A stretch of 64,000 bases of DNA from Candidatus Omnitrophota bacterium (GTDB taxonomy: Bacteria; Omnitrophota; Gorgyraeia; Ghiorseimicrobiales; Ghiorseimicrobiaceae): NCBI GenBank assembly GCA_030681595.1, contig JAUXSB010000009.1, positions 24,265-88,264 of the forward strand. The letters are read 5' to 3'. Every line of letters starts with the position of its first letter. The first letter of the stretch is position 1. Under the pieces are notes generated by a model, which did not search any database, had not been told where the DNA came from, and was given only the letters and a program-made list of their open reading frames with translations. Of this stretch, positions 5,229 through 63,435 are shown piece after piece. The position numbers and the translations under genes are program-made.

Positions 5229-5978
5229 ATGGTAGAGCTAAAAACTGAAGAGAATATCGCAGAGATTAGGCGGGCTGGCCGGGTGTTAGCAAAGGTATTT
5301 ATCAAGATACAAAAGAAAATAGCTCCCGGCATTAGTACGCAGGAAATAGATAATTGGATTAAATCTTCGGTTGAGGAATATGGCGGATCGTGCGCATTTT
5401 TTGGCTACCGGAATTATCCGGCAAACAGCTGTATTTCAGTAAATGAAGAAGTAGTCCACGGCGTTCCTTCTTTAAATAAGGTATTAAAAGAAGGCGATAT
5501 TGTCAGCGTTGATATAGGAGTAAAACTTGGTAGATATTGCGTGGATGCGGCGGTTACCTATCCGGTAGGCAATATCGATAGAGAGCGCAAGAAGCTTATT
5601 GACGCAACAAGGAAGGCCTTGGAGCTGGGGATAAGAGAGGCCTATCCCGGGAATTTTTTATCCAATATATCTTGCCGTATCCAGCGCTATGTGGAATCAT
5701 GCGGTTTTTCGGTTGTGCGCGATTTGGCAGGGCATGGCATAGGCCAAAATATCCATGAAGACCCAGAGATTCCTAATTACGGCAGGCCTGATTGCGGCAT
5801 AAAATTAAAAAAAGGCATGGTTTTGGCAATTGAACCGATGGTGAATGTAGGCAATTGGGAAGTAGAGGTCTTGAGTGATGGATGGACGGTGGTTACAAAA
5901 GATAGGTCCCCCTCAGCGCATTTTGAGCACACAATTGCTATTTTAGATAATGGGCCGGAGATTTTAACACGTTTATAA
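5229..5978 (+). CDS. map: methionine aminopeptidase type I
   Basis: 249 aa with the pita-bread fold metal ligands (D…D…H…E…E pattern). Confidence 0.9.
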   Translation: MVELKTEENIAEIRRAGRVLAKVFIKIQKKIAPGISTQEIDNWIKSSVEEYGGSCAFFGYRNYPANSCISVNEEVVHGVPSLNKVLKEGDIVSVDIGVKLGRYCVDAAVTYPVGNIDRERKKLIDATRKALELGIREAYPGNFLSNISCRIQRYVESCGFSVVRDLAGHGIGQNIHEDPEIPNYGRPDCGIKLKKGMVLAIEPMVNVGNWEVEVLSDGWTVVTKDRSPSAHFEHTIAILDNGPEILTRL

Positions 5979-6005
5979 TGATATGCAAGAGAGGGTAATA
6001 CCGCG

Positions 6006-6221
6006 ATGAAAGAAGAACTGATCGAGGTAGAAGGCACGATAAAGGAATCTTTGCCTAATGCTATGTTTCGAGTTGAATTGGATAATAAGCACATGGTAAT
6101 GGCGCATGTTTCAGGAAAAATACGGATGCATTTTATAAGGATCCTTCCCGGTGACAGGGTAAAATTAGAGCTTTCTCCTTATGATTTAAGCCGCGGAAGG
6201 ATAATTTACAGGGTGAAATAA
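6006..6221 (+). CDS. infA: translation initiation factor IF-1
   Basis: 71 aa S1-like OB fold. Classic adk-map-infA-rpmJ order. Confidence 0.92.
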
Positions 6222-6335
6222 ATGAAGGTAAAGGCTTCGGTAAAAAGAATTTGCGCAAATTGTAAAGTAATAAGAAGGCAGAGGAATATTTATATTATCT
6301 GCTCAAACCCTAAACATAAACAGAGGCAGGGATAA
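6222..6335 (+). CDS. rpmJ: 50S ribosomal protein L36, 37 aa, not in the ORF track
   Basis: Manual translation of 6222-6335 gives [37 protein letters not shown], which is an L36 zinc ribbon (C..C…C…H). Confidence 0.85.
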
Positions 6336-6411
6336 TTTAAGTTATAGGTAAGAAGTTATGAGTTATGATTTATAACTTGTAACTCTTAAGCGACTGAAAG
6401 GAGCGAAGCAA

Positions 6412-6825
6412 GTGCCAAGGATTTTAGGTGTAGATTTACCAAAAGAAAAAAGAATAGAAATTTCACTTTGTTATCTTTACGGCATTGGCCGTACCCTCTC
6501 TAATAAGATTCTTAATTCAGTAGGTATTGATCCTAATAAAAGGGCCAAGAATCTTACCGAAGAAGAGGTTTCTAAGATAACGGCGGTCATTCAGAAGGAT
6601 TATAAAATCGAAGGAGACCTGCGCAGGGATATTTCTCAGAATATAAAACGCCTTATGGATATCGGCTCATACCGCGGGATGCGCCACAAGAAGGGACTTC
6701 CGGTGCATGGTCAGCGCACGCGTACTAATGCCAGGACTCGTAAGGGTCCTAAGCGCAATGCAGGCATTATGAGAGCTAAAGAGGCGCCCGCGTCCAAAGC
6801 GGCTGCGCCGGCTAAAAAGGCATAG
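6412..6825 (+). CDS. rpsM: 30S ribosomal protein S13
   Basis: GTG start at 6412 with an AAAGGAG SD 9 nt upstream. S13 motifs (ILGVDLP…GIG) and a basic C-terminal tail. Confidence 0.92.
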
Positions 6826-6897
6826 CAGTGCTTTGAATCTGCCCGGTATTTTGCGTTGAATCTTTCCGGGCGGCTAAAGCAAGTTTAAGGAGTTATA

Positions 6898-7314
6898 ATG
6901 GAACAACCAGCCCAACAGCAAGAAGTTGCTAAAGTAAAGAGTGTTAAGAAAAATAAAAAAGCGATTAATGTCACTAGCGGAATTGCGCACATATCGGCAT
7001 CCTTTAACAATACCATCATTACTATTACTGATAGACAGGGTAATGTTATAACTTGGTCTGCGCCGGGATCAGTGGGCTTCAGCGGTTCAAAAAAATCTAC
7101 TCCTTTCGCGGCTCAGATGGCAGCGACTGACGCGGCTAAAAGAGCCAAGGATTTAGGGCTTAAAGAGTTAGATGTTTATGTAAAAGGCCCGGGGTCAGGA
7201 AGAGAGTCGGCTATCAGGGCATTACAGGCGGCAGGATTGACGATTAAGCTTATAAAGGATGTTACGCCAATGCCGCATAATGGCTGCCGGGCTCCCAAGA
7301 AAAGAAGAGTATAA
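6898..7314 (+). CDS. rpsK: 30S ribosomal protein S11
   Basis: 138 aa, conserved S11 core (…[11 protein letters not shown]…). Confidence 0.92.
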
Positions 7315-7419
7315 TAATAGCGTTTAGCAAATAGCGCAGAGCGGATAGTTTTTTAAAGGTTTTCTATGCGCTAAACGCTACACGCTACATGCTATACGCT
7401 AAATTGATATGGAGGGTTA

Positions 7420-8046
7420 ATGTCTAAAGATTCTAATGCTTCTTGCAGGCTTTGCCGCAGAGAAGGAATGAAATTATTTTTGAAGGGATTGCGTTGTATC
7501 GGGGATAAATGCGCTTTTACCCGCCGCAGTTTCGCGCCCGGCCAACATGGGAAAATGACGTCTAAGTTATCCAATTACGGTTTACAGCTAAGGGAAAAAC
7601 AAAAGGTTAAGAGGATGTACGGGTTAAGGGAGCAGCAATTTAGGCGTTATTTTAATATCGCCGCCCGTATTAAAGGAGTAACCGGTAAAATCCTAATTCA
7701 ATTACTGGAAAGAAGGCTGGATAACGTTATCTTTCGGGCCGGTTTTGCCGTATCGCACAACCAGGCACGTTTTATTGTCAATCATGGCCACATCTGTGTA
7801 AATAGCCGCCGGGTAAATATACCGTCGTATTTAGTTAAGGCTCAGGATATAGTTGAAGTAAAGGGAAAAGGGAGCTTATTAAATAATATAAAGCAGACAT
7901 TGGAAGCGATTAAGGATTGGCCGAAAGCTTCTTGGCTTGAGGTGGATGCTGCAAATCTAAAAGCAAAAGTCTTAAGGCTTCCGGAGAAGGATGATCTGCA
8001 GCTACCGATACAGGAACAGCTGATAGTAGAGTTGTATTCTAAGTAG
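7420..8046 (+). CDS. rpsD: 30S ribosomal protein S4, with an N-terminal zinc finger
   Basis: CRLCRREG…C..C N-terminus plus an S4 RNA-binding domain. Confidence 0.92.
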   Translation: MSKDSNASCRLCRREGMKLFLKGLRCIGDKCAFTRRSFAPGQHGKMTSKLSNYGLQLREKQKVKRMYGLREQQFRRYFNIAARIKGVTGKILIQLLERRLDNVIFRAGFAVSHNQARFIVNHGHICVNSRRVNIPSYLVKAQDIVEVKGKGSLLNNIKQTLEAIKDWPKASWLEVDAANLKAKVLRLPEKDDLQLPIQEQLIVELYSK

Positions 8047-8109
8047 GTTTTAATTAACATTGGCGTGGTGTTAAAAGCTAATTAACCAGACAGAACGGAG
8101 TGAGGGAAA

Positions 8110-9105
8110 ATGGGGATAAAATGGAAAGATTTTCAGATGCCGAAACGGTTAGAATGCGACGAGGCAACTTATACGCCTACTTACGGTAAATTTATTGCGG
8201 AGCCGTTTGAGCGTGGCTATGGTGTAACTTTGGGGAATTCTTTAAGGCGTGTGCTTCTTTCATCAATAGAAGGCAGCGCGGTTACTTCGGTTAAGATAGA
8301 GGGCGTATCGCATGAGTTTTCTACAATTAGCGGCGTATCAGAAGATGTAACCGATATAATCTTGAATATAAAGCAATTGGTTCTTCGCTCCTATGCCAAA
8401 ACTCCCAAGACAATTTATATAAAAGCAGATAAAAAAAGAGAGGTTAAGGCGGGGGATATTGTTACAGATGAAACTATCGAGATTCTTAACCCGGATTTAC
8501 ATATCGTTACCCTTACCGAAAATACAAAGTTTAACGTGGAAATGGAGGTTGGCCGCGGGCGTGGATATGTTACTTCCGAGGTGAATAAAAAAGACAGCCA
8601 GAGGATAGGGGTAATTGCTGTTGATTCGATATTTGCTCCGGTACGCAATGTGAATTTTTATGTAGAAAGCACACGTGTCGGGCAAAGGACAGATTACGAT
8701 AAGCTAATATTAGAGATAACTACCAACGGAAGCATTAGCCCTAAAGACGCGCTTCTTTATGCTTCGAATATATTACAGCGTCATTTAGATGTTTTTGTGA
8801 ATTTTGGGCAGCTTCCCGAAGAAGAAGAGGAGGAAGCCTTAAGTTCGGAAGAGCAAGCATTATATGAGAAACTCAAGCTTCCTATATCGGAACTTGAGCT
8901 TTCCGTGCGTAGCTCTAATTGCCTGAAAGAAACAAATATTAAGACCATTGGGGACTTAGTAAGAAGAACAGAGGCTGATTTATTGGGCTTGCGTAACTTC
9001 GGGAAAAAATCGCTTACGGAAATCAGTGAATTGATTGTTTCTTTAGGTTTAACCTTAGGGATGGACGTAGACTTAAAGAAAATAAAGAAAGAAAAACAAG
9101 GATAA
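8110..9105 (+). CDS. rpoA: DNA-directed RNA polymerase alpha subunit
   Basis: 331 aa with alpha NTD and CTD (…LSVRSSNCLK…). Position after rpsD. Confidence 0.92.
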   Translation: MGIKWKDFQMPKRLECDEATYTPTYGKFIAEPFERGYGVTLGNSLRRVLLSSIEGSAVTSVKIEGVSHEFSTISGVSEDVTDIILNIKQLVLRSYAKTPKTIYIKADKKREVKAGDIVTDETIEILNPDLHIVTLTENTKFNVEMEVGRGRGYVTSEVNKKDSQRIGVIAVDSIFAPVRNVNFYVESTRVGQRTDYDKLILEITTNGSISPKDALLYASNILQRHLDVFVNFGQLPEEEEEEALSSEEQALYEKLKLPISELELSVRSSNCLKETNIKTIGDLVRRTEADLLGLRNFGKKSLTEISELIVSLGLTLGMDVDLKKIKKEKQG

Positions 9106-9108
9106 AAA

Positions 9109-9771
9109 ATGCGCCATAAGGTAAACAAATCAAGGTTATCGCTTTCGAAAAGCCAAAGAAAGGCATTAATTAATGCCTTGGCTCGGTCAATGATCATAAA
9201 TGGCAGGATTAAAACTACCATACAAAGGGCAAAAAATGCTAAGCCTTTAGTCGAGCATCTTATTTCTTTGGGTAAAGAAGGCAGTCTTTATGCCAAGAGA
9301 AAGGCGTATAAGATATTACAGAATCATTTATTGGTTTCAAGGCTGTTTGGCGAGATTGCCCCTAAGTTTAAAGTCAGGCAGGGTGGTTACAGCCGTATTC
9401 TTCGTTTTGGCAGGCGCAGGGGCGATGGCACAGAAATGGCCCTGTTTGAATTGACCGAGGTTATCAAGGAAATAAAGCCGGAATCAGTTAAGAAGAAGAA
9501 GGAAAAAACCAAGGCTGCTGAGGCAAAGTCTCATGGCGAAGTATACCCCAAGGCGCAAGGATTAAAAGCAAAAGAAGCCGGCGTAGTTGCGTCTTCAGAG
9601 AAGCCAAAAGCGGCAGTCGAAGAAGAAAAGCGGCCTGCGGAAAAACCAAAATCTGCGCCTGAAGAGCAGAAGAAGCACAAGAATATAGAAATATATGATA
9701 AGAAGAGGGCGCATAAGAAATTTTTAGGCGGCTTAAGAAGCTTTTTCAAAAAAGAAAGAGATAGCCTCTAA
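9109..9771 (+). CDS. rplQ: 50S ribosomal protein L17, with a ~100 aa Lys/Ala/Glu-rich C-terminal extension
   Basis: An L17 core covers the first ~115 aa. It is followed by a low-complexity KKKKEKTKAAEAK…PEEQKKHK tail. Confidence 0.88.
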   Translation: MRHKVNKSRLSLSKSQRKALINALARSMIINGRIKTTIQRAKNAKPLVEHLISLGKEGSLYAKRKAYKILQNHLLVSRLFGEIAPKFKVRQGGYSRILRFGRRRGDGTEMALFELTEVIKEIKPESVKKKKEKTKAAEAKSHGEVYPKAQGLKAKEAGVVASSEKPKAAVEEEKRPAEKPKSAPEEQKKHKNIEIYDKKRAHKKFLGGLRSFFKKERDSL

Positions 9772-9851
9772 AATTCCTCTTAGCGATAACAAAAGAATAT
9801 ATTAAACCCCGCCAGAGTAATTTTTTGGCGGGGTAAATATCAAGCAGACTC

Positions 9852-11021
9852 TTGATGAATAAGCTTGCTCAGCGTGTCAAGGATATAGAACCGTCTTCGA
9901 CACTTGCTATAACTGCCCGCGCAAAAAAAATGCGCCAAGAAGGTTTGGATGTAATTAGTTTTGCCGCAGGTGAGCCTGATTTTGACACTCCTCAATATAT
10001 CAAAGACGCCGCTATAAAGGCATTAGCGGAAGGTTTTACTAAGTATACCCCCTCAAGCGGTATCCCCGAATTAAAAAAGGCCATCCAGAAAAAATTTAAG
10101 CTTGATAATAGCCTAGATTATGAACCAGAGCAGATTATCGTTTCTTGCGGGGCAAAACACTCACTTTTTAATATAATTCAAGTTTTGGTAGATAAAAATG
10201 CTGAGGTGCTTATCCCATCGCCTTATTGGGTGAGTTATCTGGAAATGGTTAAGTTTGCCCAAGGCAAAGCTGTAATTCTTAAGACAGACAGTAGAAACTC
10301 TTTTAAGCTTAACGCCGAAATTTTAAGTAAAAACATCACAAAGAAAACCAAGCTGCTTATTTTAAATTCTCCTTCTAATCCTGCAGGCTGTGTATACAAG
10401 AGAGAAGAACTTGATGACATCGCGCAAATATGCGTAAAAAATAAGCTATGGGTGTTAAGCGACGAGATATATGAGAAACTTATTTATGAAAATAATAAGC
10501 ATATTTCTATCGCCACTTTAAATAATGACATATATAAGCTTACCTTTGTAGTAAATGGCGTCTCTAAGGCTTACTCAATGACCGGCTGGCGCATAGGATA
10601 TCTTGCCGGAGATAAAGAGGCAGTAGAGGCAACAGCGAGGCTGCAGGATCACTCTACTTCTAATCCTTGTTCCATATCGCAAAAAGCGGCTTTGGCAGCG
10701 TTGTCTTCCGACAATGGCTTTATTGATAAGATGCGCCTTGAATTTGAGGAAAGGCGTAACCTGATGCTTTCCGAGTTAGATAAAATAGGGTTGGATTATA
10801 TTAAACCAGAAGGTGCGTTTTACGTTTTTCTGGATATTTCAAAGGCTAAGATTGGTTCATGGGAGTTCTGCGATAAATTTTTGGCGGAAAAATATGTTGC
10901 CGTAATCCCGGGTGCGGCATTTGGAAATGATAATTATGTACGTTTTAGTTTCGCGGCCAGTATGCCGGAAATAAAAAAAGGTTTAGAGCGGCTAAGAGAA
11001 TTCATAAGCTCGCCCCGTTAG
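9852..11021 (+). CDS. PLP-dependent aminotransferase class I (aspartate or aromatic aminotransferase-like)
   Basis: 389 aa with the PLP-lysine context SKAYSMTGWRIGY. Typical AspAT fold-type I signature. Confidence 0.85.
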   Translation: MMNKLAQRVKDIEPSSTLAITARAKKMRQEGLDVISFAAGEPDFDTPQYIKDAAIKALAEGFTKYTPSSGIPELKKAIQKKFKLDNSLDYEPEQIIVSCGAKHSLFNIIQVLVDKNAEVLIPSPYWVSYLEMVKFAQGKAVILKTDSRNSFKLNAEILSKNITKKTKLLILNSPSNPAGCVYKREELDDIAQICVKNKLWVLSDEIYEKLIYENNKHISIATLNNDIYKLTFVVNGVSKAYSMTGWRIGYLAGDKEAVEATARLQDHSTSNPCSISQKAALAALSSDNGFIDKMRLEFEERRNLMLSELDKIGLDYIKPEGAFYVFLDISKAKIGSWEFCDKFLAEKYVAVIPGAAFGNDNYVRFSFAASMPEIKKGLERLREFISSPR

Positions 11022-11182
11022 AGACCAGTCCGACTTCGGCCTGCCCGAATGAAGTCAGGCGGGTCTGGCGGGTAGGCCATCATAGATGGCCGTCTATTGC
11101 GGGATAGGTAATAATAAACGAATGGCTTCCATAAATAAGCAGTAGTTTCAAGCAGCATAAAACGTATCTCTAACGGGGTAAA

Positions 11183-12439
11183 ATGGGTAAAACTATTGTT
11201 GAAAAAATTTTAAGCGCCCACTCCGGAAAAGATCTGAAGCCGGGAGATTTTGCTATATGTGATGTAGATTTTTGCTTTGGGCAAGATGGCACTTCCGCGA
11301 TTATCATTGACCGGATTAAAGCGCTGGGCGTAAAAAATCTCGCCAATAAAGATAAATTTTGCATGGTCATAGACCATAGTTCTCCCAGCCCGAATATGGG
11401 GGTTTCCGCTGTCCATAGTAAGATGCGTGCGTTTGCAAAAGAGTTCGGTTTAAAAGTCTATGATATCGGCTGTGGAGTTTGTCATGAGGTGGTCCCGGCA
11501 GAAGGCAATGTCCTGCCCGGGGATTTGGTTTTGGGGGCAGATTCGCATACCTGCACCTATGGCGCAATCGGCGCATTCTCTACCGGCGTCGGATCAACCG
11601 ATTTGGCAGTTGCTTTAGCCAGCGGTAAAAACTGGTTCCGTGTCCCTGAAACGATAAAGATAGAAGTAAATGGAAAATTGCCTAAAGGCGTTTATGCCAA
11701 AGATTTGATTCTTTACATCATCGGCGACTTGGGAGCAAATGGCGCTACTTATAGGGCGGTTGAGTTTTATGGAAGCGCAATAGATAATTTATCTCTTGAC
11801 GGGCGTTTTACAATGAGTAATATGGTAGTAGAAATGGGCGCAAAATGCGCCTTCTTTCCGGTGGATGAAAAAGTTCTAAGCTGGGTAAAAGAAAAGAGCA
11901 TAAAGAGAAAACCCATAATTTATAAAGCAGATTCTAGCGCCGAATATTGCCTGGTTAAGGAATATGATGCCGGAGACATTGCGCCACAGGTGGCAAGGCC
12001 GCATACTGTTGATAATGTAGTTGCGGTAAAAAAGATAGAAGGCCTTAAAATTAACGAAGCATTTTTAGGCACCTGCACCAACGGAAGGCTTGATGATTTG
12101 AAGGTGGCTTGGCGAATTTTAAAGGGAAGAAAAGTTAATCCGAAGATTAAATTCATTATCGCGCCAGCTTCACGCAGGATTTATTTGGAGGCATTAAAAT
12201 TAGGTTTTATAGAAACTTTTATAAAGGCGGAAGCGGTAGTGATTACTCCGGGATGCGGGCCGTGCGTGGGCACCCATATGGGTATTCCCGCAGATAAAGA
12301 AGTAGTGCTTTCAACGGCAAACAGGAATTTTAAGGGCAGGATGGGAAATCCTGAGTCGGAAATCTATCTTGCTTCTCCGGCTACTGTTTGCGCTTCAGCT
12401 GTTAGCGGCAAAATAACCGACCCACGGAAATATTTATAG
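11183..12439 (+). CDS. leuC: 3-isopropylmalate / citramalate dehydratase large subunit (aconitase family, archaeal-type LeuC)
   Basis: 418 aa. Has the aconitase cluster-ligand context (…GTCTNGR…, …PGCGPCVG…). Confidence 0.88.
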   Translation: MGKTIVEKILSAHSGKDLKPGDFAICDVDFCFGQDGTSAIIIDRIKALGVKNLANKDKFCMVIDHSSPSPNMGVSAVHSKMRAFAKEFGLKVYDIGCGVCHEVVPAEGNVLPGDLVLGADSHTCTYGAIGAFSTGVGSTDLAVALASGKNWFRVPETIKIEVNGKLPKGVYAKDLILYIIGDLGANGATYRAVEFYGSAIDNLSLDGRFTMSNMVVEMGAKCAFFPVDEKVLSWVKEKSIKRKPIIYKADSSAEYCLVKEYDAGDIAPQVARPHTVDNVVAVKKIEGLKINEAFLGTCTNGRLDDLKVAWRILKGRKVNPKIKFIIAPASRRIYLEALKLGFIETFIKAEAVVITPGCGPCVGTHMGIPADKEVVLSTANRNFKGRMGNPESEIYLASPATVCASAVSGKITDPRKYL

Positions 12440-17353: not shown

Positions 17354-18130
17354 ATGATTTCTAAAGAATTAATCCGGAGGAATTTTTCAAATGTAGCGGC
17401 CAATTATGACGAGCACGCTGTTATACAAAAAAAATCCGGCTGCGAGCTCGTCGGACAATTACGAAAAGATAAAAATAATTATGGAGCGATTTTAGATATA
17501 GGCACGGGGACAGGCGGTTTATTGAGGGATTTGTCTTTGGTGTGCAGGCCCGCGTTAATATGCGGTCTGGACATTTCTTCCAATATGCTTATAAAAGCCA
17601 GGGCGTCTGAAAAGAGTAGCTTCTTTATACAGGCCGATGCAGAAAACATTCCTTTTAAAAAAAACACATTTGATTTAGTCGTTTCTAATTTGGCTTATCA
17701 GTGGCTTATGGATTTAGATAGCGCTTTTATTCAACTAGCAGGGATTTTAAAAGAAAGAGGGATGTTTTATTTTACTTCTTTTGGCCGCCGGACGCTTTCC
17801 GAACTAAGGGAATGTCTCAAGTCGGTAAAAGAAGCATCCGATTACAACATTTTTCCCGCAAAGGAAGCAATGCATTCCAAATTAAAAAATGCTGGGTTTG
17901 CGAATATTAAAATTATCTCGAAAATAGAGAAAGAGTTTTTTGTTGATTCTTTCAGCCTTATCCGCTGGTTAAAATATTCTGGGGCAAACAGGATAGGCGT
18001 TCGGTTTAATGGGCTTGAGGCGCGGGGTGTACTTAAAGAAATGGATAAATTATATTTAGAGAAATACCCGGCTGGCGGCGGCGTATTTGCCTCGTTTGAA
18101 AGATATATTGTTAAAGCAGAAAAAAGATGA
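17354..18130 (+). CDS. bioC: malonyl-ACP O-methyltransferase
   Basis: SAM-methyltransferase motif ILDIGTGTG. The ORF track starts at 17312 inside the right TIR. The Met at 17354 (MISKELIRRNF) aligns with typical BioC N-termini. Confidence 0.82.
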   Translation: MISKELIRRNFSNVAANYDEHAVIQKKSGCELVGQLRKDKNNYGAILDIGTGTGGLLRDLSLVCRPALICGLDISSNMLIKARASEKSSFFIQADAENIPFKKNTFDLVVSNLAYQWLMDLDSAFIQLAGILKERGMFYFTSFGRRTLSELRECLKSVKEASDYNIFPAKEAMHSKLKNAGFANIKIISKIEKEFFVDSFSLIRWLKYSGANRIGVRFNGLEARGVLKEMDKLYLEKYPAGGGVFASFERYIVKAEKR

Positions 18131-18200
18131 GCCCCGCCCTTCCTGAAATTTGATAAAGTAGGAAGGCATGGGCCAGAAAGAGAAAGGAAGAGCGGGGTGA
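18131..18200 (+). promoter_or_regulatory. repeated leader element copy 1: ccccgcccttcct … gaaaggaagagcggggtGa, embedding the SD and GTG start of bioD
   Basis: Near-identical ends to the element at 27995-28046. The cttcct tract can pair with either of two downstream aggaag tracts. The bioD GTG lies inside the 3' arm. Confidence 0.5.
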
Positions 18201-18862
18201 GAAAAGGTGTCTTTATCAGTGCAACCGGCACGGGCATAGGCAAGACTTTAATTAGTTCTTGTATCATACGTCTTTTAAGATTAAAGAAAATAGACTGCGG
18301 CGTAATGAAGCCCGTACAGTGCGGCGGAGACGATGCCCAGCGCCTGATCCGGCGCGCTGGAGTAAATGATCCCATAGGATTGGTAAGCCCTTTTTATTCT
18401 AAATACCCATATGCTCCGCTCGTTGCATTTAAGAAAGAGGGGATAAATTTTAATGCAGGCATAGTTATTTCAAGTTTTAAGGCTTTATCCAAGCGGCATA
18501 AATTTATGGTTGTAGAGGGCGCAGGAGGGATGCTCGTTCCTTTAGCGAATAATTATTTTATCGCGGATTTAGTTTTAGATTTAAAACTTCCGCTTATAAT
18601 TATTGCTTCAACAGCCTTAGGCACAATAAACCATACCCTGCTTACGGTTGAATCCGCCAAAAAGAGGAAAATAAAGATTCTAGGCATTATCTTTAATAAT
18701 TTATCTCTTAAGGCCGGAGTTGCAGAAAAGATAAATCCGGAAGTCATCCAGAGAATCTGCCGCCTGCCAATATTGGGCAATATCCCCTATATACAGCCAT
18801 GCATAAACAACAAAAATATCCTTAAGCTAGGCATAGACTTAGGCAGGATTTTACATGAGTAA
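18197..18862 (+). CDS. bioD: dethiobiotin synthetase
   Basis: GTG start. P-loop TGTGIGKT. Confidence 0.88.
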   Translation: MRKGVFISATGTGIGKTLISSCIIRLLRLKKIDCGVMKPVQCGGDDAQRLIRRAGVNDPIGLVSPFYSKYPYAPLVAFKKEGINFNAGIVISSFKALSKRHKFMVVEGAGGMLVPLANNYFIADLVLDLKLPLIIIASTALGTINHTLLTVESAKKRKIKILGIIFNNLSLKAGVAEKINPEVIQRICRLPILGNIPYIQPCINNKNILKLGIDLGRILHE

Positions 18863-52202: not shown

Positions 52203-53153
52203 GTGAATAAACTGATAGCTATTGAAAATAATAACGAAGCACGCCTCTTATTCGGAGAGTTGGATGAAAATCTCCGGCTTATAGAGGCTCAGTTTAAAGT
52301 AAAGACTCATCTCAAGCAGGAAGGTTTGGAAATTGACGGGCAAGCGCAGGATATAGAGAAAGCCGCGCAATTATTACAGCATTGGCTTACGCTTATTCGG
52401 GATGGGGTGCAGCTGTCTAAAAAAGATGTGCTTTATGATATCCGTTCTATAAAAAACCGCGCTGGGATCGAGCCTACAGATATACACAGGGAGCGTATTG
52501 ATATTGAAGTTAAGGGCAAGCAGATCGGCCCGCGTACAAAAGGGCAGTTTGAATATGTTGCGGCGATAAAACGCCATGATATCGTGTTCGGCTTAGGCCC
52601 CGCTGGTACAGGAAAAACATACCTGGCAATGGCTATGGCGGTTGAGGCGTTAAAAAAGGGATATGTCCGTAGAATAATACTTACGCGCCCGGCGATTGAG
52701 GCGGGAGAATCGCTGGGGTATCTGCCGGGGGATATGTATGAAAAAATTAATCCTTACCTTCGCCCGTTATATGACGCTTTATACGATATGATGGAAGCCC
52801 CCAGAATAGAGGAATACAAAGAGTTAAACGTCATTGAGGTAGCCCCTTTGGCTTATATGCGCGGTAGGACTTTAAACGATGCGTTTATTATTTTAGATGA
52901 AGCTCAAAATTGTACTCCAGAACAGTTAAAAATGTTCCTTACGCGTTTGGGGTTTGATTCTAAGACGGTTATTACCGGTGACCTTACCCAGAGCGATCTG
53001 CCGGAAGGAAAGCCGGCAGGCTTATTACAGGCGCAGGAGCTGCTTTCCGGTATAGAAGGGATTAAATTTATATACCTATCCGGAGTCGATGTCGTCCGTC
53101 ATGAATTAGTCCAGCAAATAATAAAGGCTTATGAAAAAACTTCTCGTAGATAG
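52203..53153 (+). CDS. phoH: PhoH-like ATPase (YbeZ)
   Basis: Walker A GPAGTGKT. PhoH family, 316 aa. Confidence 0.9.
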   Translation: MNKLIAIENNNEARLLFGELDENLRLIEAQFKVKTHLKQEGLEIDGQAQDIEKAAQLLQHWLTLIRDGVQLSKKDVLYDIRSIKNRAGIEPTDIHRERIDIEVKGKQIGPRTKGQFEYVAAIKRHDIVFGLGPAGTGKTYLAMAMAVEALKKGYVRRIILTRPAIEAGESLGYLPGDMYEKINPYLRPLYDALYDMMEAPRIEEYKELNVIEVAPLAYMRGRTLNDAFIILDEAQNCTPEQLKMFLTRLGFDSKTVITGDLTQSDLPEGKPAGLLQAQELLSGIEGIKFIYLSGVDVVRHELVQQIIKAYEKTSRR

Positions 53154-54495
53154 CCTATTATTCTCTTTTTATCTTATAGGTTTGCTTTTTCTTTCTTATG
53201 CTGTCGGCATATCATACTTTCTTCCTGTAGTTATCCTAGTGATTTTTGTTTATCTGAAGTATTATTATCAAAAAAAAGCTAAACGTAAAACTTATAATTA
53301 CTTGGCGTTAGGATTGCTTTTGGCGATGGTTGTCGCCTCCAGCAAGGCTTTAGTTGATTATTCTAATCTTTCTGTGTATTTTATCCCGGTTTCGGCTGTC
53401 GCGATGCTGTGTACTATCCTTTTTAATGATATCGGGCTTACTTTTGTCTTGGCTTTAACGGCAAGTTTTTCCGCCGGGATAATCGCTCAAAACAGCTTAG
53501 GGCTTACCTGTGTACTTTTTATCGGTGGGATTTTTTCCGGGATTTTGGTTCTGAACTTACGGCGGCGTTCACAAATTATAAAGGCGGGAATTCTCTCCGG
53601 TGTTATTCAGGCCTTTAGCGCTGTTTTTCTGGAATTACCTTATTTTGAGCAAGTTTTTAAGGTTATTTGGCCAAATCTTTTAAGCTGTATTCTCTCGGGG
53701 GTATTTGTATCTGGTGCGCTTCCGGTATTTGAGTACTTGTTTAAAGTGGCGAGTAATATTAAGCTTCTTGAACTGTCGGATTTTAATCAGCCACTCCTTA
53801 AGAAAATGGTGCTTGAAGCACCCGGAACTTATCATCATAGCCTGGTTGTAGGGAATTTGTCCGAAGCCGCAGCTGAGGCAATAGGGGCTAATTCATTGCT
53901 TGCGCGCATAGGCGCCTATTACCATGATATCGGTAAGATTGATAAGGCGGAATACTTTATTGAAAATCAGCTTCAGGAAAGCTTGACTACTGCCCACCAG
54001 CAGATTAAGCCTTCTATAAGCAAAATGGTAATTATGAATCATGTTAAGGAAGGGATAGAGCTCGCAAAAAGGCATAAATTGAATCCTGCGATAGTCGATT
54101 TTGTTGCCCAGCATCACGGGACAAGTTTAGTGTTTTATTTTTACTGCCGCGCGCTAGAGAACGGGCATGCGGAAGATGAGATACGGGAGGAGGGCTTCCG
54201 TTATGGCGGCCCTAAACCACAGACCAAAGAAACCGCTATTGTTTTATTAGCAGATTCCGCGGAAGGGGCGGCGAGAGCTTTGACTGAACACACCCCGAAA
54301 AAGATACACGAATTAGTGCGTAAGATAATTAACAATAAATTTATAGACGGCCAACTCGATGAATGCGAATTAGCTCTGTCGGATTTGGAAAATATTGCAG
54401 CTATATTTACTAAAATATTATCGGCGGTATATCATGTGCGTATTACCTACCCCGAGAAAAACGGTGAGAATAGCGATAATAAATCAACAGCGTAA
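53131..54495 (+). CDS. membrane-anchored HD hydrolase (7TMR-HD / YqfF-like, short form)
   Basis: Multiple TM helices in the N-terminal half, then HD…AYYHDIGK. Position between phoH and ybeY as in Bacillus. Confidence 0.78.
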   Translation: MKKLLVDSLLFSFYLIGLLFLSYAVGISYFLPVVILVIFVYLKYYYQKKAKRKTYNYLALGLLLAMVVASSKALVDYSNLSVYFIPVSAVAMLCTILFNDIGLTFVLALTASFSAGIIAQNSLGLTCVLFIGGIFSGILVLNLRRRSQIIKAGILSGVIQAFSAVFLELPYFEQVFKVIWPNLLSCILSGVFVSGALPVFEYLFKVASNIKLLELSDFNQPLLKKMVLEAPGTYHHSLVVGNLSEAAAEAIGANSLLARIGAYYHDIGKIDKAEYFIENQLQESLTTAHQQIKPSISKMVIMNHVKEGIELAKRHKLNPAIVDFVAQHHGTSLVFYFYCRALENGHAEDEIREEGFRYGGPKPQTKETAIVLLADSAEGAARALTEHTPKKIHELVRKIINNKFIDGQLDECELALSDLENIAAIFTKILSAVYHVRITYPEKNGENSDNKSTA

Positions 54496-54901
54496 AGTAG
54501 CCGTTAATCAGAAAAAAATAAGAGACGTTATAAAACTGATTTTGTATAAAGAGCACTCTAGTGCAGGAGATATTTCGGTTACAGTCACTACCGATAATAA
54601 AATCCGAAAATTTAACCGCGCATACCTGAATAAAGATTTGCCCACCGATGTATTATCGTTTAGTTTCTTAGGTAAAAAGCCAGAAAAAATAATTCCGGTT
54701 TCCATATTAGGCGATATCATAGTTTCGGCTGATACGGCAGTTTCTAATGCGGTAATTTATAAAACTACTCCAAAAGAAGAGCTTTATTTATATGTTATAC
54801 ATGGCCTGCTGCATTTATTAGGCTACAATGATATTACGCCGGGCAAGCGTGCGGTGATGAAAAAGAAAGAGCTGCATTATCTTCGAAGGATTAAATTTTA
54901 G
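54434..54901 (+). CDS. ybeY: rRNA maturation endoribonuclease YbeY. Start uncertain.
   Basis: HGLLHLLGYND metal-binding motif and TDVLSFSF. The ORF track starts at 54395 and overlaps the upstream gene. The internal Met at 54434 or a GTG near 54464 is more likely. Confidence 0.82.
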   Translation: MCVLPTPRKTVRIAIINQQRKVAVNQKKIRDVIKLILYKEHSSAGDISVTVTTDNKIRKFNRAYLNKDLPTDVLSFSFLGKKPEKIIPVSILGDIIVSADTAVSNAVIYKTTPKEELYLYVIHGLLHLLGYNDITPGKRAVMKKKELHYLRRIKF

Positions 54902-54968
54902 CGGTTAGTGTTTAGCGGATAGAACCGGCATTTTCTACACGCTATACGCTATACGCTGTACGCTAACG

Positions 54969-55703
54969 ATGGCTATCTGTAAAACCGAAGCAATAGTTAT
55001 TAGGACATTTGATTTCCGCGAAACTAGCATTATTGCGGAGTTTTTTACGCGGGATTTTGGCCGGCTTAAAGGGATTCTAAAGGGGATAAGGAAAGACCGT
55101 AAAAAATTCGCATCAACCCTAGAGCCGTTTTCGCTTAATGAGATTATATTTTATCAAAGCCGCAACAGCGAATTACACCTGGTGTCCGGCTGCGATTTAG
55201 AAGATGGTTTTTTAAATGTACGTTCCGACCTTAAAAAGATACACCTGGCCAGCTTTCTGATGGAATTGGTTTCCGCGCTTTTTGCCCCGGAAGATAAAAA
55301 CGAAGAAGCTTTTGAAGTTATTTTATCCTCTTTAGAAGATTTATCCAGCGTTAATGACCCGGAAAAGATTATCAGTATTGCCCAAATAAAATTGCTGCGC
55401 CTTTCCGGGTTTAAGCCTCATTTTGATTCCTGTGTTTTATGCAATAATGATATTTCAGGAGAAGCAAAATTCAGTTCTAAGTTCGGAGGCCTGCTTTGTC
55501 CGAAATGCGCTTATCGTGATTCTCAAATACACCCGGTGCTAAGAGGGACAATCGCGTCAATTAAGCATATTGAAAGGTCCGGTTGGTCTGATACCTTAAG
55601 GTTAAATTTAGCCCATCCGATAAAAGCAGAACTGAAGAATATGCTGGATAAGTTTTTAATGTTTCATTTAGAAAAAAGATTAAAAACTGCGAGGTTTTTA
55701 TGA
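54969..55703 (+). CDS. recO: DNA repair protein RecO
   Basis: 244 aa. OB fold plus a Cys4 zinc motif (CVLCN…CPKC). Confidence 0.85.
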   Translation: MAICKTEAIVIRTFDFRETSIIAEFFTRDFGRLKGILKGIRKDRKKFASTLEPFSLNEIIFYQSRNSELHLVSGCDLEDGFLNVRSDLKKIHLASFLMELVSALFAPEDKNEEAFEVILSSLEDLSSVNDPEKIISIAQIKLLRLSGFKPHFDSCVLCNNDISGEAKFSSKFGGLLCPKCAYRDSQIHPVLRGTIASIKHIERSGWSDTLRLNLAHPIKAELKNMLDKFLMFHLEKRLKTARFL

Positions 55704-61040: not shown

Positions 61041-61289
61041 GTGGATATGAAATGTTTTGCGCTTTTGCTGATAATGCCAGCGGTTGGTATGGTTACCGCA
61101 AGTTTCTTTGTTGCCTTTGCGGCATCAAAAACAGACTCTAAAGGGTTAAAGAATTATGCTAGGTTTGTTATAGCGCTTCTCGGGATTGCCGCGGTAGCCA
61201 TTATTTGCGGCGTTGTATGTAAATTTATCTTCGCGGGTGGCTGTTCTACTTTGGGTTCAGGCAGGTATGAGCCGTTTTGCCCGATGTAA
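61041..61289 (+). CDS. hypothetical small membrane protein (2 TM)
   Basis: 82 aa and hydrophobic. Confidence 0.4.
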   Translation: MDMKCFALLLIMPAVGMVTASFFVAFAASKTDSKGLKNYARFVIALLGIAAVAIICGVVCKFIFAGGCSTLGSGRYEPFCPM

Positions 61290-61978
61290 TTCCTTTAGTA
61301 ATGGCTTTATTGATTCTAACGTTACTTACAGTCATTTTTGCCTTAGTCATCATTGTGTTGAGCCTTTCTCCGCCGAAAGATTCAAAAACAAAAGAACCGG
61401 AAGTAAAACACAGCGAAAGCTTAGAAAAGAATATTAAAAAACTTAAAGGGCAAATTAGCCTGCTTGAAGTAGAATTAAAGAAGGAAAAAGAAAACAGTAA
61501 GCTGATTAAAGGAGATCTGGACAAAACGCTAGAGCGGGAAGTAGTGCTGCTTAACGAGAAAAAAACCGAAGCAAAAGAAAGAGGCGATTTGGAAAACGCG
61601 AAAAAGGAATTGCGTGAAGCCAAGCGCAAATTGGCCGATAAGGATAAGGTATTTGATGCGGAGTATTCTCTAAACTTAAAATTAAAGAAAGAGTTGGAAG
61701 ATAAAAAGAATGAAATAGGGCTGCTTAAAAAAGATTCCCGGCAGATGACGGATGAAAATAGAGGGCTTGAGCTTGAAGTAAAGAAACTATATGAGAAAAT
61801 ATCCGCGCAGGAGGGTATAATTAAAAATCTGGAAAAGAAGCAATCTGAATCCAGCTGGGTTTCCAAAAAAGAATATTCAAAGCTTGAAAAAGAATTAGCA
61901 GGCAAGAGAGAAGAAATAGAAAGGCTGCGTTCGGAGTTATTGGGTCTTGGCGGGAAAAACGGGGCTTTTAGGGAGTAG
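61277..61978 (+). CDS. membrane-anchored coiled-coil protein (K/E-rich)
   Basis: N-terminal TM helix, then ~190 aa of heptad-like K/E/L repeats. The mirror ORF on the - strand (61246..61905) is Ser-rich and judged spurious. Confidence 0.55.
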   Translation: MPDVIPLVMALLILTLLTVIFALVIIVLSLSPPKDSKTKEPEVKHSESLEKNIKKLKGQISLLEVELKKEKENSKLIKGDLDKTLEREVVLLNEKKTEAKERGDLENAKKELREAKRKLADKDKVFDAEYSLNLKLKKELEDKKNEIGLLKKDSRQMTDENRGLELEVKKLYEKISAQEGIIKNLEKKQSESSWVSKKEYSKLEKELAGKREEIERLRSELLGLGGKNGAFRE

Positions 61979-61998: not shown

Positions 61999-63435
61999 AT
62001 GACTCAGATTGAGGGTCTTTTTAGCAATCTTAGAATAATAAACTTTATTGATATCGGTGTAATTGCCATATTCATTTATATGGTCTTAATTTGGTTTGAG
62101 CAGGCAAGAGCAAGATTTGTACTGATCGGCTTGTTTATCTTAGGCTCTGTTTACATTTTAGCGCGTTTGTTCGGCTTGTACCTAACGACGATATTCTTTC
62201 AGGCCTTTTTTGCTATTTTCCTGATTATGGTAGTGATAATATTCCAGGATGAATTCCGCCGCTTTTTTGAGCGTGTAGCGTTATGGGGGTTAATCCGTAA
62301 TAAAAGGCGTTTTACCTCCTTTAACGAAAATGTAGATATACTCACTAATGCGCTGGCAGAGCTTTCTAATAAAAAAATCGGAGCGTTGGTAGTAATAAAG
62401 GGGACAGATCACCTGGCGCGCCATATTGAGGGAGGTATACCTCTAGGCGGCTTAATAAGCCAGATTATACTGGAGGCCATTTTTAATCCTGGCGCCCCTA
62501 CCCATGACGGAGCGGTAATTGTCGAAGAAGGGCGTATTATTGAATTCGGATGCCACCTGCCTCTTTCTATGAATATTCACGAGATCGGCCATTTAGGCAC
62601 TAGGCACGCCGCAGCTTTAGGTTTAGCCGAGCGTACCGATGCTTTGTGCCTGGTTGTGTCCGAAGAAAGAGGGACTGTTTCTTTCGCCGAAGGCAATAAA
62701 ATAAAGGCGTTAAAAGATATGGCGGCATTGCGTCTCTGCTTAGAAGATTTCTACCGTAAACAGTTTCCGCAGCGAAGGAATATATGGTCAGATTTGTTAA
62801 CCGGGCATATTTTTGAGAAGTTGACCGCGATTGCTTTAGCCTTCGGCCTGTGGTTTGCGTTCGGGCATACACAGGACATAATCCAGAGAGATTTTGTCGT
62901 TCCGATAGAATACCGTAATCTTGCCTCGAATTGGACTATTACCGAGCCTAAGCCTAAAGAGGCTAGCGTTGCTTTAAGCGGAATCGAAAGCGCTTTTAGC
63001 TTAATGGATCCAAAGGAGCTTAAAATTTCTTTGGATATGTCTGGAGTTAAAGATGGGCTTAATGAATTTACGTTTTCTAAAGATTCAATCCGTAATCCGA
63101 CGGGAATCTCGATAATGGGTATTAGCCCGCCAAAGATCACACTTGAGGCATACCGAATGGTTAATTTAAGCGTTCCGATAGAGGCAGTGACTGTCGGGCG
63201 GCTGCCTGCCGGGCTTGGCCTTGTCAATATTAAGGTTGAACCGCAGGTGATTTCGATATTTGCCCCAAGCACTATCCAGCGCGATTTAATTAAGGTTACA
63301 ATAGAAGAAATCGATTTACGCAAGATAACTGAAACACAGATTGTTATGAATAAAATTGTTTTACCCAAAGAGGTACGTTTAGCGGATGATAAGCAGCAGG
63401 AGGTAAAAGTTACCATTGAAGTAGAAAAGAGATAG
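61999..63435 (+). CDS. cdaA: diadenylate cyclase CdaA fused to a YbbR-like (CdaR) domain region
   Basis: Three N-terminal TM helices. DAC domain motifs THDGAVIV and LGTRHAAALG (RHR variant RHA). Then a further TM segment and ~170 aa with YbbR-like beta-repeat patterns (VTVGRLPAGLGLVNIKVEPQVISIFAP) in the same ORF. Confidence 0.8.
   Translation: MTQIEGLFSNLRIINFIDIGVIAIFIYMVLIWFEQARARFVLIGLFILGSVYILARLFGLYLTTIFFQAFFAIFLIMVVIIFQDEFRRFFERVALWGLIRNKRRFTSFNENVDILTNALAELSNKKIGALVVIKGTDHLARHIEGGIPLGGLISQIILEAIFNPGAPTHDGAVIVEEGRIIEFGCHLPLSMNIHEIGHLGTRHAAALGLAERTDALCLVVSEERGTVSFAEGNKIKALKDMAALRLCLEDFYRKQFPQRRNIWSDLLTGHIFEKLTAIALAFGLWFAFGHTQDIIQRDFVVPIEYRNLASNWTITEPKPKEASVALSGIESAFSLMDPKELKISLDMSGVKDGLNEFTFSKDSIRNPTGISIMGISPPKITLEAYRMVNLSVPIEAVTVGRLPAGLGLVNIKVEPQVISIFAPSTIQRDLIKVTIEEIDLRKITETQIVMNKIVLPKEVRLADDKQQEVKVTIEVEKR

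Follow-up and report, generated by a model that had tools for sequence, protein, structure and literature searches.

The 64,000-nucleotide stretch of DNA analysed here (the window; contig JAUXSB010000009.1 of GenBank assembly GCA_030681595.1, positions 24,265 to 88,264 of the forward strand) comes from a Candidatus Omnitrophota bacterium. At 61999-63435 on the plus strand it carries an open reading frame (ORF) of 478 amino acids, which encodes a CdaA-type diadenylate cyclase that carries, in the same chain, a further transmembrane (TM) helix and two YbbR domains at its C terminus. The ORF begins with ATG, and an AAGGAG box lies 10 nt 5' of it. An earlier note, made from the sequence alone, had proposed that cdaA and cdaR (ybbR) are fused here, and Pfam, AlphaFold and Foldseek agreed that one polypeptide combines a cyclase (three TM helices plus the DAC domain) with a CdaR-like module (a TM helix plus YbbR repeats). 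The Pfam comparison that the note had suggested placed both domains above their gathering cutoffs in the one chain: DAC (PF02457) at residues 117-234 (E=2.9e-35, 120.8 bits versus a cutoff of 27) and YbbR (PF07949; E=2.1e-11, 44.4 bits versus 22.3) in two stretches, the best being 392-473. CdaA_N was matched weakly at residues 9-85 (20.4 bits, under the cutoff of 23.8); in most homologues it is above threshold.

From the N terminus, three CdaA_N-like TM helices occupy about residues 13-81 (62035-62241), followed by the DAC catalytic domain (residues 117-234; 62347-62700), a fourth TM helix (about residues 271-289; 62809-62865), YbbR domain 1 (about residues 294-390; 62878-63168) and YbbR domain 2 (about residues 392-477; 63172-63429), all on the plus strand. 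The HDGAVIV motif reported in the note was present at residues 169-175 and contains the DGA motif (D170-G171-A172; 62506-62514). Where the DAC family has RHR, the protein has R202-H203-A204 (62602-62610), within GTRHAAA at residues 200-206; the replacement of the second Arg by Ala had thus been read correctly.

The AlphaFold2 model of the whole protein (mean predicted local distance difference test, pLDDT, 77.8) contained helices at residues 13-36, 39-57 and 61-81, an alpha/beta domain at 108-255, a hydrophobic helix at 271-288 and two all-beta domains. The fourth helix, which coincides with the hydrophobic stretch FEKLTAIALAFGLWFAFGH, is the extra hydrophobic segment that had been noticed after the DAC domain. 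In Foldseek searches of the PDB, the DAC model matched CdaA chains with E values of about 1e-14 to 1e-15, target-normalised TM-scores of 0.88-0.94 and root-mean-square deviations (rmsd) of 1.3-1.8 A, superposing on CdaA of Bacillus subtilis, Listeria monocytogenes, Staphylococcus aureus and Streptococcus pneumoniae and on Mycoplasma CdaM/DacM. The C-terminal 208 amino acids, compared with PDB sequences by phmmer, gave only chance matches and no solved YbbR chain, so a fold search was needed. Residues 289-478 were modelled separately (pLDDT 89.8), with YbbR domain 1 all-beta as in the whole-protein model, and the best PDB matches were YbbR proteins. They included 4qdy, the YbbR-like SP_1560 (E=4.5e-10), 3lyw (Dhaf_0833; rmsd 1.6 A at a target-normalised TM-score of 0.86), 5hqh (lmo2119 of L. 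monocytogenes, YbbR-like domain; 0.70), 2kpu and 2l3u. Ribosomal L25/CTC proteins ranked after the YbbR structures, as expected for the YbbR (L25-like) fold.

Basic residues are found in the TM1-TM2 loop (EQARARF), after TM3 (RRFFER...RNKRR) and before TM4 (RKQFPQRRN). This pattern fits an N-out topology, in which the DAC domain would be cytoplasmic, TM4 would run from the cytoplasm to the outside and the YbbR domains would lie outside. TM4 directly precedes YbbR1, forming a single anchor N-terminal to the YbbR repeats, and in the AlphaFold models the chain stops right after YbbR2, giving two YbbR domains in all. The product of the downstream gene is a beta-barrel protein of the outer membrane; this agrees with a diderm envelope and so with YbbR domains in the periplasm. 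Read-through from a cdaA into an adjacent, TM-anchored cdaR would be expected to yield the same topology.

The canonical arrangement is two genes, and on that ground cdaA and cdaR could have been merged here through a frameshift introduced in sequencing or assembly, or through an overlooked stop codon; the note had pointed to a possible frameshift near 62800. No tool result supported such an artefact. Among 5.8 billion proteins, a homologue search retrieved 4295 relatives, of which the closest was 90% identical, and the best 120 were analysed as close homologues. Almost all of these 120 were 478-500 amino acids long and carried both PF02457 and PF07949, and the same domains occurred in 115 or more independent clusters of about 480 amino acids. 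The fused homologues of this length came mostly from metagenome-assembled genomes (MAGs) of Omnitrophota, and also from MAGs of Hydrogenedentota, Elusimicrobia, Planctomycetes and others. A search of genome contigs with the single protein gave only four loci, too few for a taxonomic census. Comparison with related genomes, which had been proposed as a check, showed the same fused architecture in the same frame: a family hidden Markov model (HMM) placed DAC, YbbR1 and YbbR2 in one reading frame in six fetched loci (among them L001, L002, L004, L005 and L006).

We calculated the ratio of nonsynonymous to synonymous substitution rates (dN/dS) by the Nei-Gojobori method against the 90% identical relative (L005) and a 76% identical relative (L001) in five segments, namely TM1-3, DAC, linker plus TM4, YbbR1 and YbbR2, and obtained values of 0.05-0.32. 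The linker plus TM4 gave 0.055 against L005; against L001 its dS was saturated and no ratio was computable. All five segments, the junction included, are under purifying selection. Both the sequence and the length of the linker and TM4 are conserved, E273, K274, A277, A281, W285 and F288 being the conserved positions of TM4. A277 is also among the most conserved positions of the whole protein, as are R297, D298, P302, E304, Y305, R306 and N307, which lie in YbbR1 and make up the most conserved cluster of the C-terminal part. We therefore rejected the artefact, to which we give practically no probability, on the grounds that more than 100 independent assemblies encode one continuous protein of about 480 amino acids, that the frame is shared and that purifying selection runs through the junction. 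The comparative data exclude a frameshift, which makes a read pile-up unnecessary. Architecture, fold, conservation and selection are matters of observation for this gene; its call is correct, and it should not be split in annotation.

The fusion is also not peculiar to this genome, as the note could be taken to imply, since hundreds of clusters across several phyla carry both Pfam domains and the annotation 'diadenylate cyclase'. Public databases list the DAC-YbbR architecture in precomputed form and already give the proteins that name. The family is thus catalogued, and the protein described here, though uncharacterised, is an ordinary member of it; its fused form and altered motif are common to hundreds of uncultured bacteria. 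A 'DAC-ybbR' architecture was mentioned in 2011 for a Streptococcus pneumoniae draft genome (PMC11254362), as a database architecture without characterisation or phylogenetic context, and our literature search found no experimental characterisation of any DAC-YbbR fusion.

We examined the altered RHR motif by aligning the protein to solved CdaA chains with phmmer (E down to 1e-29). The alignments were ungapped across the motif (GTRHRAA versus GTRHAAA), which places A204 at the position that the second Arg of RHR takes in those chains. Turning its codon, GCC (62608-62610), into any Arg codon would take two or more substitutions. Among the best 120 of the 4295 relatives, residue 204 was Ala in 107-108, Thr in 7, Ser in 4, Val in 1 and Arg in none; the complete RHR of the DAC family is absent, with the second Arg missing from this protein and from about 99% of the clade. 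An exhaustive HMMER search, in which residues 1-270 were compared with 1.84 billion representatives (50% identity), gave 6675 relatives; 855 had E<=1e-30. Of the best 150 of these, 147 were long enough to align, and residue 204 was Ala, Thr or Ser in 139/147 and Arg in 3/147, while R202 and H203 did not vary. A summary count gives RH[A/T/S] for 119/120 of the close homologues and 144/147 of these representatives. The 147 fell into three length classes, of about 480-500 amino acids (two YbbR domains), about 385-425 amino acids (one C-terminal domain, with a weak or absent Pfam YbbR match) and about 290 amino acids (unfused), and RH[A/T/S] predominated in all three. One unfused member, P0127 (ENA ERZ1426817), is a CdaA of 292 amino acids with RHT, encoded by a complete gene inside a 20-kb contig. 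Directly after it lies a DHH/DHHA1 gene, possibly for a phosphodiesterase of cyclic di-AMP (c-di-AMP) or of the linear dinucleotide pApA.

A search seeded with P0260, a fused protein bearing RHR, revealed a sister subfamily in which 118/120 sequences kept RHR. Its members (P0260 and P0280-P0398, for example P0292 and P0376; from Entotheonellia and candidate phyla radiation (CPR)/Patescibacteria MAGs) are 385-405 amino acids long and share the order of three TM helices, DAC and a further TM helix, with 40-45% identity over the CdaA part and His at the Tyr187 position of L. monocytogenes CdaA. They differ from the protein described here in their single C-terminal domain of about 100 amino acids, mostly missed by the Pfam YbbR model, where the Omnitrophota protein has two YbbR domains. 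We considered a link between RHA and fusion and rejected it, since the unfused P0127 has RHT and fused proteins of about 400 amino acids keep RHR. The note had reported the change for this fused gene; RH[A/T/S] is clade-wide, unfused CdaAs included, and a sister fused subfamily retains RHR. Substitution and fusion are therefore not mechanistically coupled; they are separate evolutionary events that coincide in the two-YbbR (Omnitrophota-type) subfamily. A description of the clade-wide RH[A/T/S] motif was not found in our literature search.

Compared with Firmicutes CdaA (DacA/YbbP; PDB 6huw, 4rv7, 6gyw and 9g69), the protein shares the three N-terminal TM helices, the cytoplasmic DAC domain and the DGA, T-R-H and S-E-E residues, with 32-43% identity over the catalytic domain to CdaA of B. 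subtilis, of L. monocytogenes and of S. aureus and target-normalised TM-scores of about 0.9. It differs in having Ala for the second Arg of RHR, His for Tyr187 and Lys for Arg126, the latter being a GlmM contact in B. subtilis CdaA (PMC8573169). The fused protein also adds a TM helix and two C-terminal YbbR domains and lies outside a cdaA-cdaR-glmM operon. With CdaR (YbbR; 4qdy, 5hqh, 3lyw, 2kpu and 2l3u) it shares a single TM anchor and tandem YbbR (L25-like beta) domains. CdaR, however, is a separate product encoded downstream of cdaA, whereas here the module is covalently joined to the cyclase, and B. subtilis CdaR has four YbbR domains and a C-terminal disordered region (PMC10636490, bioRxiv 10.64898/2026.09.06.749708), as against two domains and no tail. 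The identification of the C-terminal part as CdaR therefore stands for the YbbR domains and fails as a claim of orthology, and we use the label for resemblance at the domain level. The protein has the DAC and YbbR domains and folds and would work like CdaA plus CdaR; the textbook features it lacks are the complete RHR, a TIGR00159 score above cutoff, and a four-domain CdaR with a glmM-containing operon.

On the analogy with these systems, we consider the protein to be probably an active CdaA-type cyclase with an extracytoplasmic regulator or sensor attached in cis. The three TM helices would hold the DAC domain in the cytoplasm, TM4 would return the chain across the membrane, and the two YbbR domains would be displayed on the outer (periplasmic) face, while c-di-AMP would still be made from two ATP. 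Synthesis of c-di-AMP needs two DAC domains head to head. TM4 would stand in for the CdaR anchor and pack against TM1-3, and the YbbR module would modulate activity, perhaps by biasing the head-to-head dimerisation of DAC that catalysis needs. In Firmicutes, CdaR has been reported both to activate and to inhibit CdaA; for the fused protein, we infer catalytic activity, a direction of regulation and a sensed signal. It is the TM region of CdaA with which CdaR/YbbR interacts (PMC6368335, PMC8573169), and the extracellular part of CdaR has been proposed as a sensor of peptidoglycan status, for which B. subtilis CdaR needs its disordered tail (bioRxiv 10.64898/2026.09.06.749708). As the fused protein has no such tail, the cue sensed may differ from that of B. 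subtilis CdaR. The term 'covalently self-regulated', which the note had applied to the cyclase, may describe it by the same analogy. A natural single-chain CdaA-CdaR would fix the stoichiometry at 1:1 and place the TM-TM contact in cis, and the fused protein could suit structural and biochemical work on envelope-to-cyclase signalling.

Several points weigh against an active cyclase with a sensor in cis. TIGR00159, the CdaA equivalog, was the best NCBIfam model and scored 170.3 bits, below its cutoff of 188.8; the description of the N-terminal part as a canonical membrane-anchored CdaA was thus right about the three TM helices and DAC and slightly too strong in the word 'canonical'. The RHR hallmark is incomplete. 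Most members have His, here His186 (62554-62556), in place of the Tyr that stacks on adenine in L. monocytogenes CdaA, Tyr187. The sensing mechanism may not be that of B. subtilis CdaR, since the fused protein has only two YbbR domains and lacks the disordered region at the C terminus. The literature search found no biochemical data on any member of the clade. Finally, a second canonical DAC may exist elsewhere in the genome, as the scan covered the window. Arg141 was considered as a compensating residue and is likewise a point on this side, kept as a lead only: it is present in 232/271 (86%) of the sequences without R204 versus 26/124 (21%) of those with R204, but position 141 lies outside the top subfamily-discriminating columns, many columns separate the two subfamilies more sharply, and the association possibly reflects shared ancestry. 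Relative to Firmicutes CdaA, the clade-specific changes in residues 135-141 (62401-62421) are Gly135 for Arg and Arg141 for Asp/Glu.

The altered active site could also mean that the RHA site, together with the Tyr-to-His change, no longer makes c-di-AMP and that DAC serves in nucleotide binding or scaffolding, for example as a membrane receptor of ATP or c-di-AMP that is linked to a YbbR module sensing the envelope. Such a pseudo-cyclase would fit with the missing second Arg in essentially the whole clade, with the TIGR00159 score below cutoff and with the finding that RHR-to-AAA triple mutants are dead (PMC3328451, PMC13022847). Those mutants, however, had lost the first Arg and the His as well. 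The first Arg has been mutated alone, as R203A in Leptospira (bioRxiv 10.1101/2025.04.15.648992) and R143A in DacM (bioRxiv 10.1101/2022.03.11.483894), and is essential on its own (bioRxiv 10.1101/2025.04.15.648992); our literature search found tests of the first Arg or of AAA triples and no mutation of the second Arg alone. D170, G171, A172, T201, R202, H203, S221, E222 and E223 were essentially invariant across 267 relatives, and such invariance of the other catalytic and ligand-contacting residues over about 270 diverged sequences is unexpected after loss of catalysis, although nucleotide binding could keep some of them.

A further point against a pseudo-cyclase comes from the window itself. 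At 53131-54495 on the plus strand lies a gene for a PgpH-like protein of 454 amino acids, a 7TM receptor plus HD hydrolase (Pfam 7TM-7TMR_HD, E=3e-25; HD, E=3.6e-13) and candidate c-di-AMP phosphodiesterase, in which Pfam did not match the extracellular 7TMR-HDED domain. It belongs to a phoH-pgpH-ybeY-recO cluster (52203-55703), 7.5 kb upstream of the cyclase, and suggests that the organism turns over c-di-AMP. A source of c-di-AMP is thereby implied, and neither the 64-kb window, scanned in six frames with the family HMM, nor the six related loci contained a second DAC or a separate YbbR coding region. We regard the loss of cyclase activity as unlikely. The remaining catalytic residues are strictly conserved, from which we infer that the enzyme is active and the second Arg dispensable in the clade; its loss, fixed in the clade, is most likely tolerated rather than inactivating, to judge from the aligned sequences. 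In evolution, then, the clade would have been able to dispense with the second Arg of the textbook RHR, a caveat for motif-based DAC annotation. The altered motif bears on DAC catalysis in a modest but testable way, and the fusion is ordinary for its lineage.

Alternatively, the protein could be a cyclase of altered chemistry, in which the changes of R205 to Ala, Thr or Ser, of Y187 to His and to Arg at 141 shift substrate, metal or product, for instance towards ADP rather than ATP or towards a different nucleotide product. The coordinated clade-wide changes at 135, 141, 186 and 204 relative to Firmicutes CdaA speak for this, and some DACs are known to vary in their use of ATP and ADP (PMC3328451; bioRxiv 10.1101/2022.03.11.483894). 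Such column differences are, however, what any subfamily split would give, in CdaA it is the main chain of the residue following Tyr187 whose atoms read adenine (PMC11066881), the LPLS segment is invariant in the clade, and we found no direct evidence of altered chemistry, which we consider improbable. More broadly, the multi-phylum clade with RH[A/T/S] and His for Tyr, mostly fused to one or two YbbR domains, might form a mechanistically distinct class of diadenylate cyclases, an idea to which we give only a slim chance. It could imply different phosphate or metal handling, a different substrate or product, or activity strictly dependent on the cis-linked sensor.

The genes preceding the cyclase encode PolX, ApbE, an FNR-like Fe-S flavoprotein subunit, a small TM protein and a TM plus coiled-coil protein of 233 amino acids, and the cyclase starts 20 nt past the stop of the last of these. 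The last two genes form a pair at 61041-61978 that overlaps by 13 nt; the first product, of 82 amino acids, is a TM protein, and the second combines a TM helix at its N terminus with a long coiled coil rich in Lys and Glu. Pfam matched neither. We considered the pair as a conserved operon partner and rejected it: it precedes the cyclase in L005 (90% identity) and L001 (76% identity) and is absent from this position in L004 and L006, so that synteny is limited to close relatives. More generally, gene order is common to the 90% and 76% relatives and not to more distant ones.

The operon cdaA-cdaR-glmM is typical of Firmicutes and not universal. The note had remarked that glmM is not adjacent, and we found none next to the gene or among the GlmM-sized ORFs of the 64-kb window; as regards the operon context, neither glmM nor a separate cdaR was present in the window or beside the relatives. 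An Rfam scan of the whole window gave no family at gathering score and hence no c-di-AMP riboswitch, and a promoter and terminator scan around the cyclase gene stayed at chance level.

Osmolyte metabolism is the best-known output of c-di-AMP signalling. In L004, a locus from a Planctomycetales MAG (5589-11596), the fused cyclase (54% identity) has yggT upstream and, downstream, genes for a trehalose-6-phosphate synthase (GT20), a trehalose phosphatase and a TreT-like trehalose synthase, an anecdotal link of the cyclase to osmolyte metabolism. Across the window (1-64000), all ORFs of at least 150 amino acids lie on the plus strand, except three that overlap plus-strand ORFs (17842-18375, 61246-61905 and 62751-63416).

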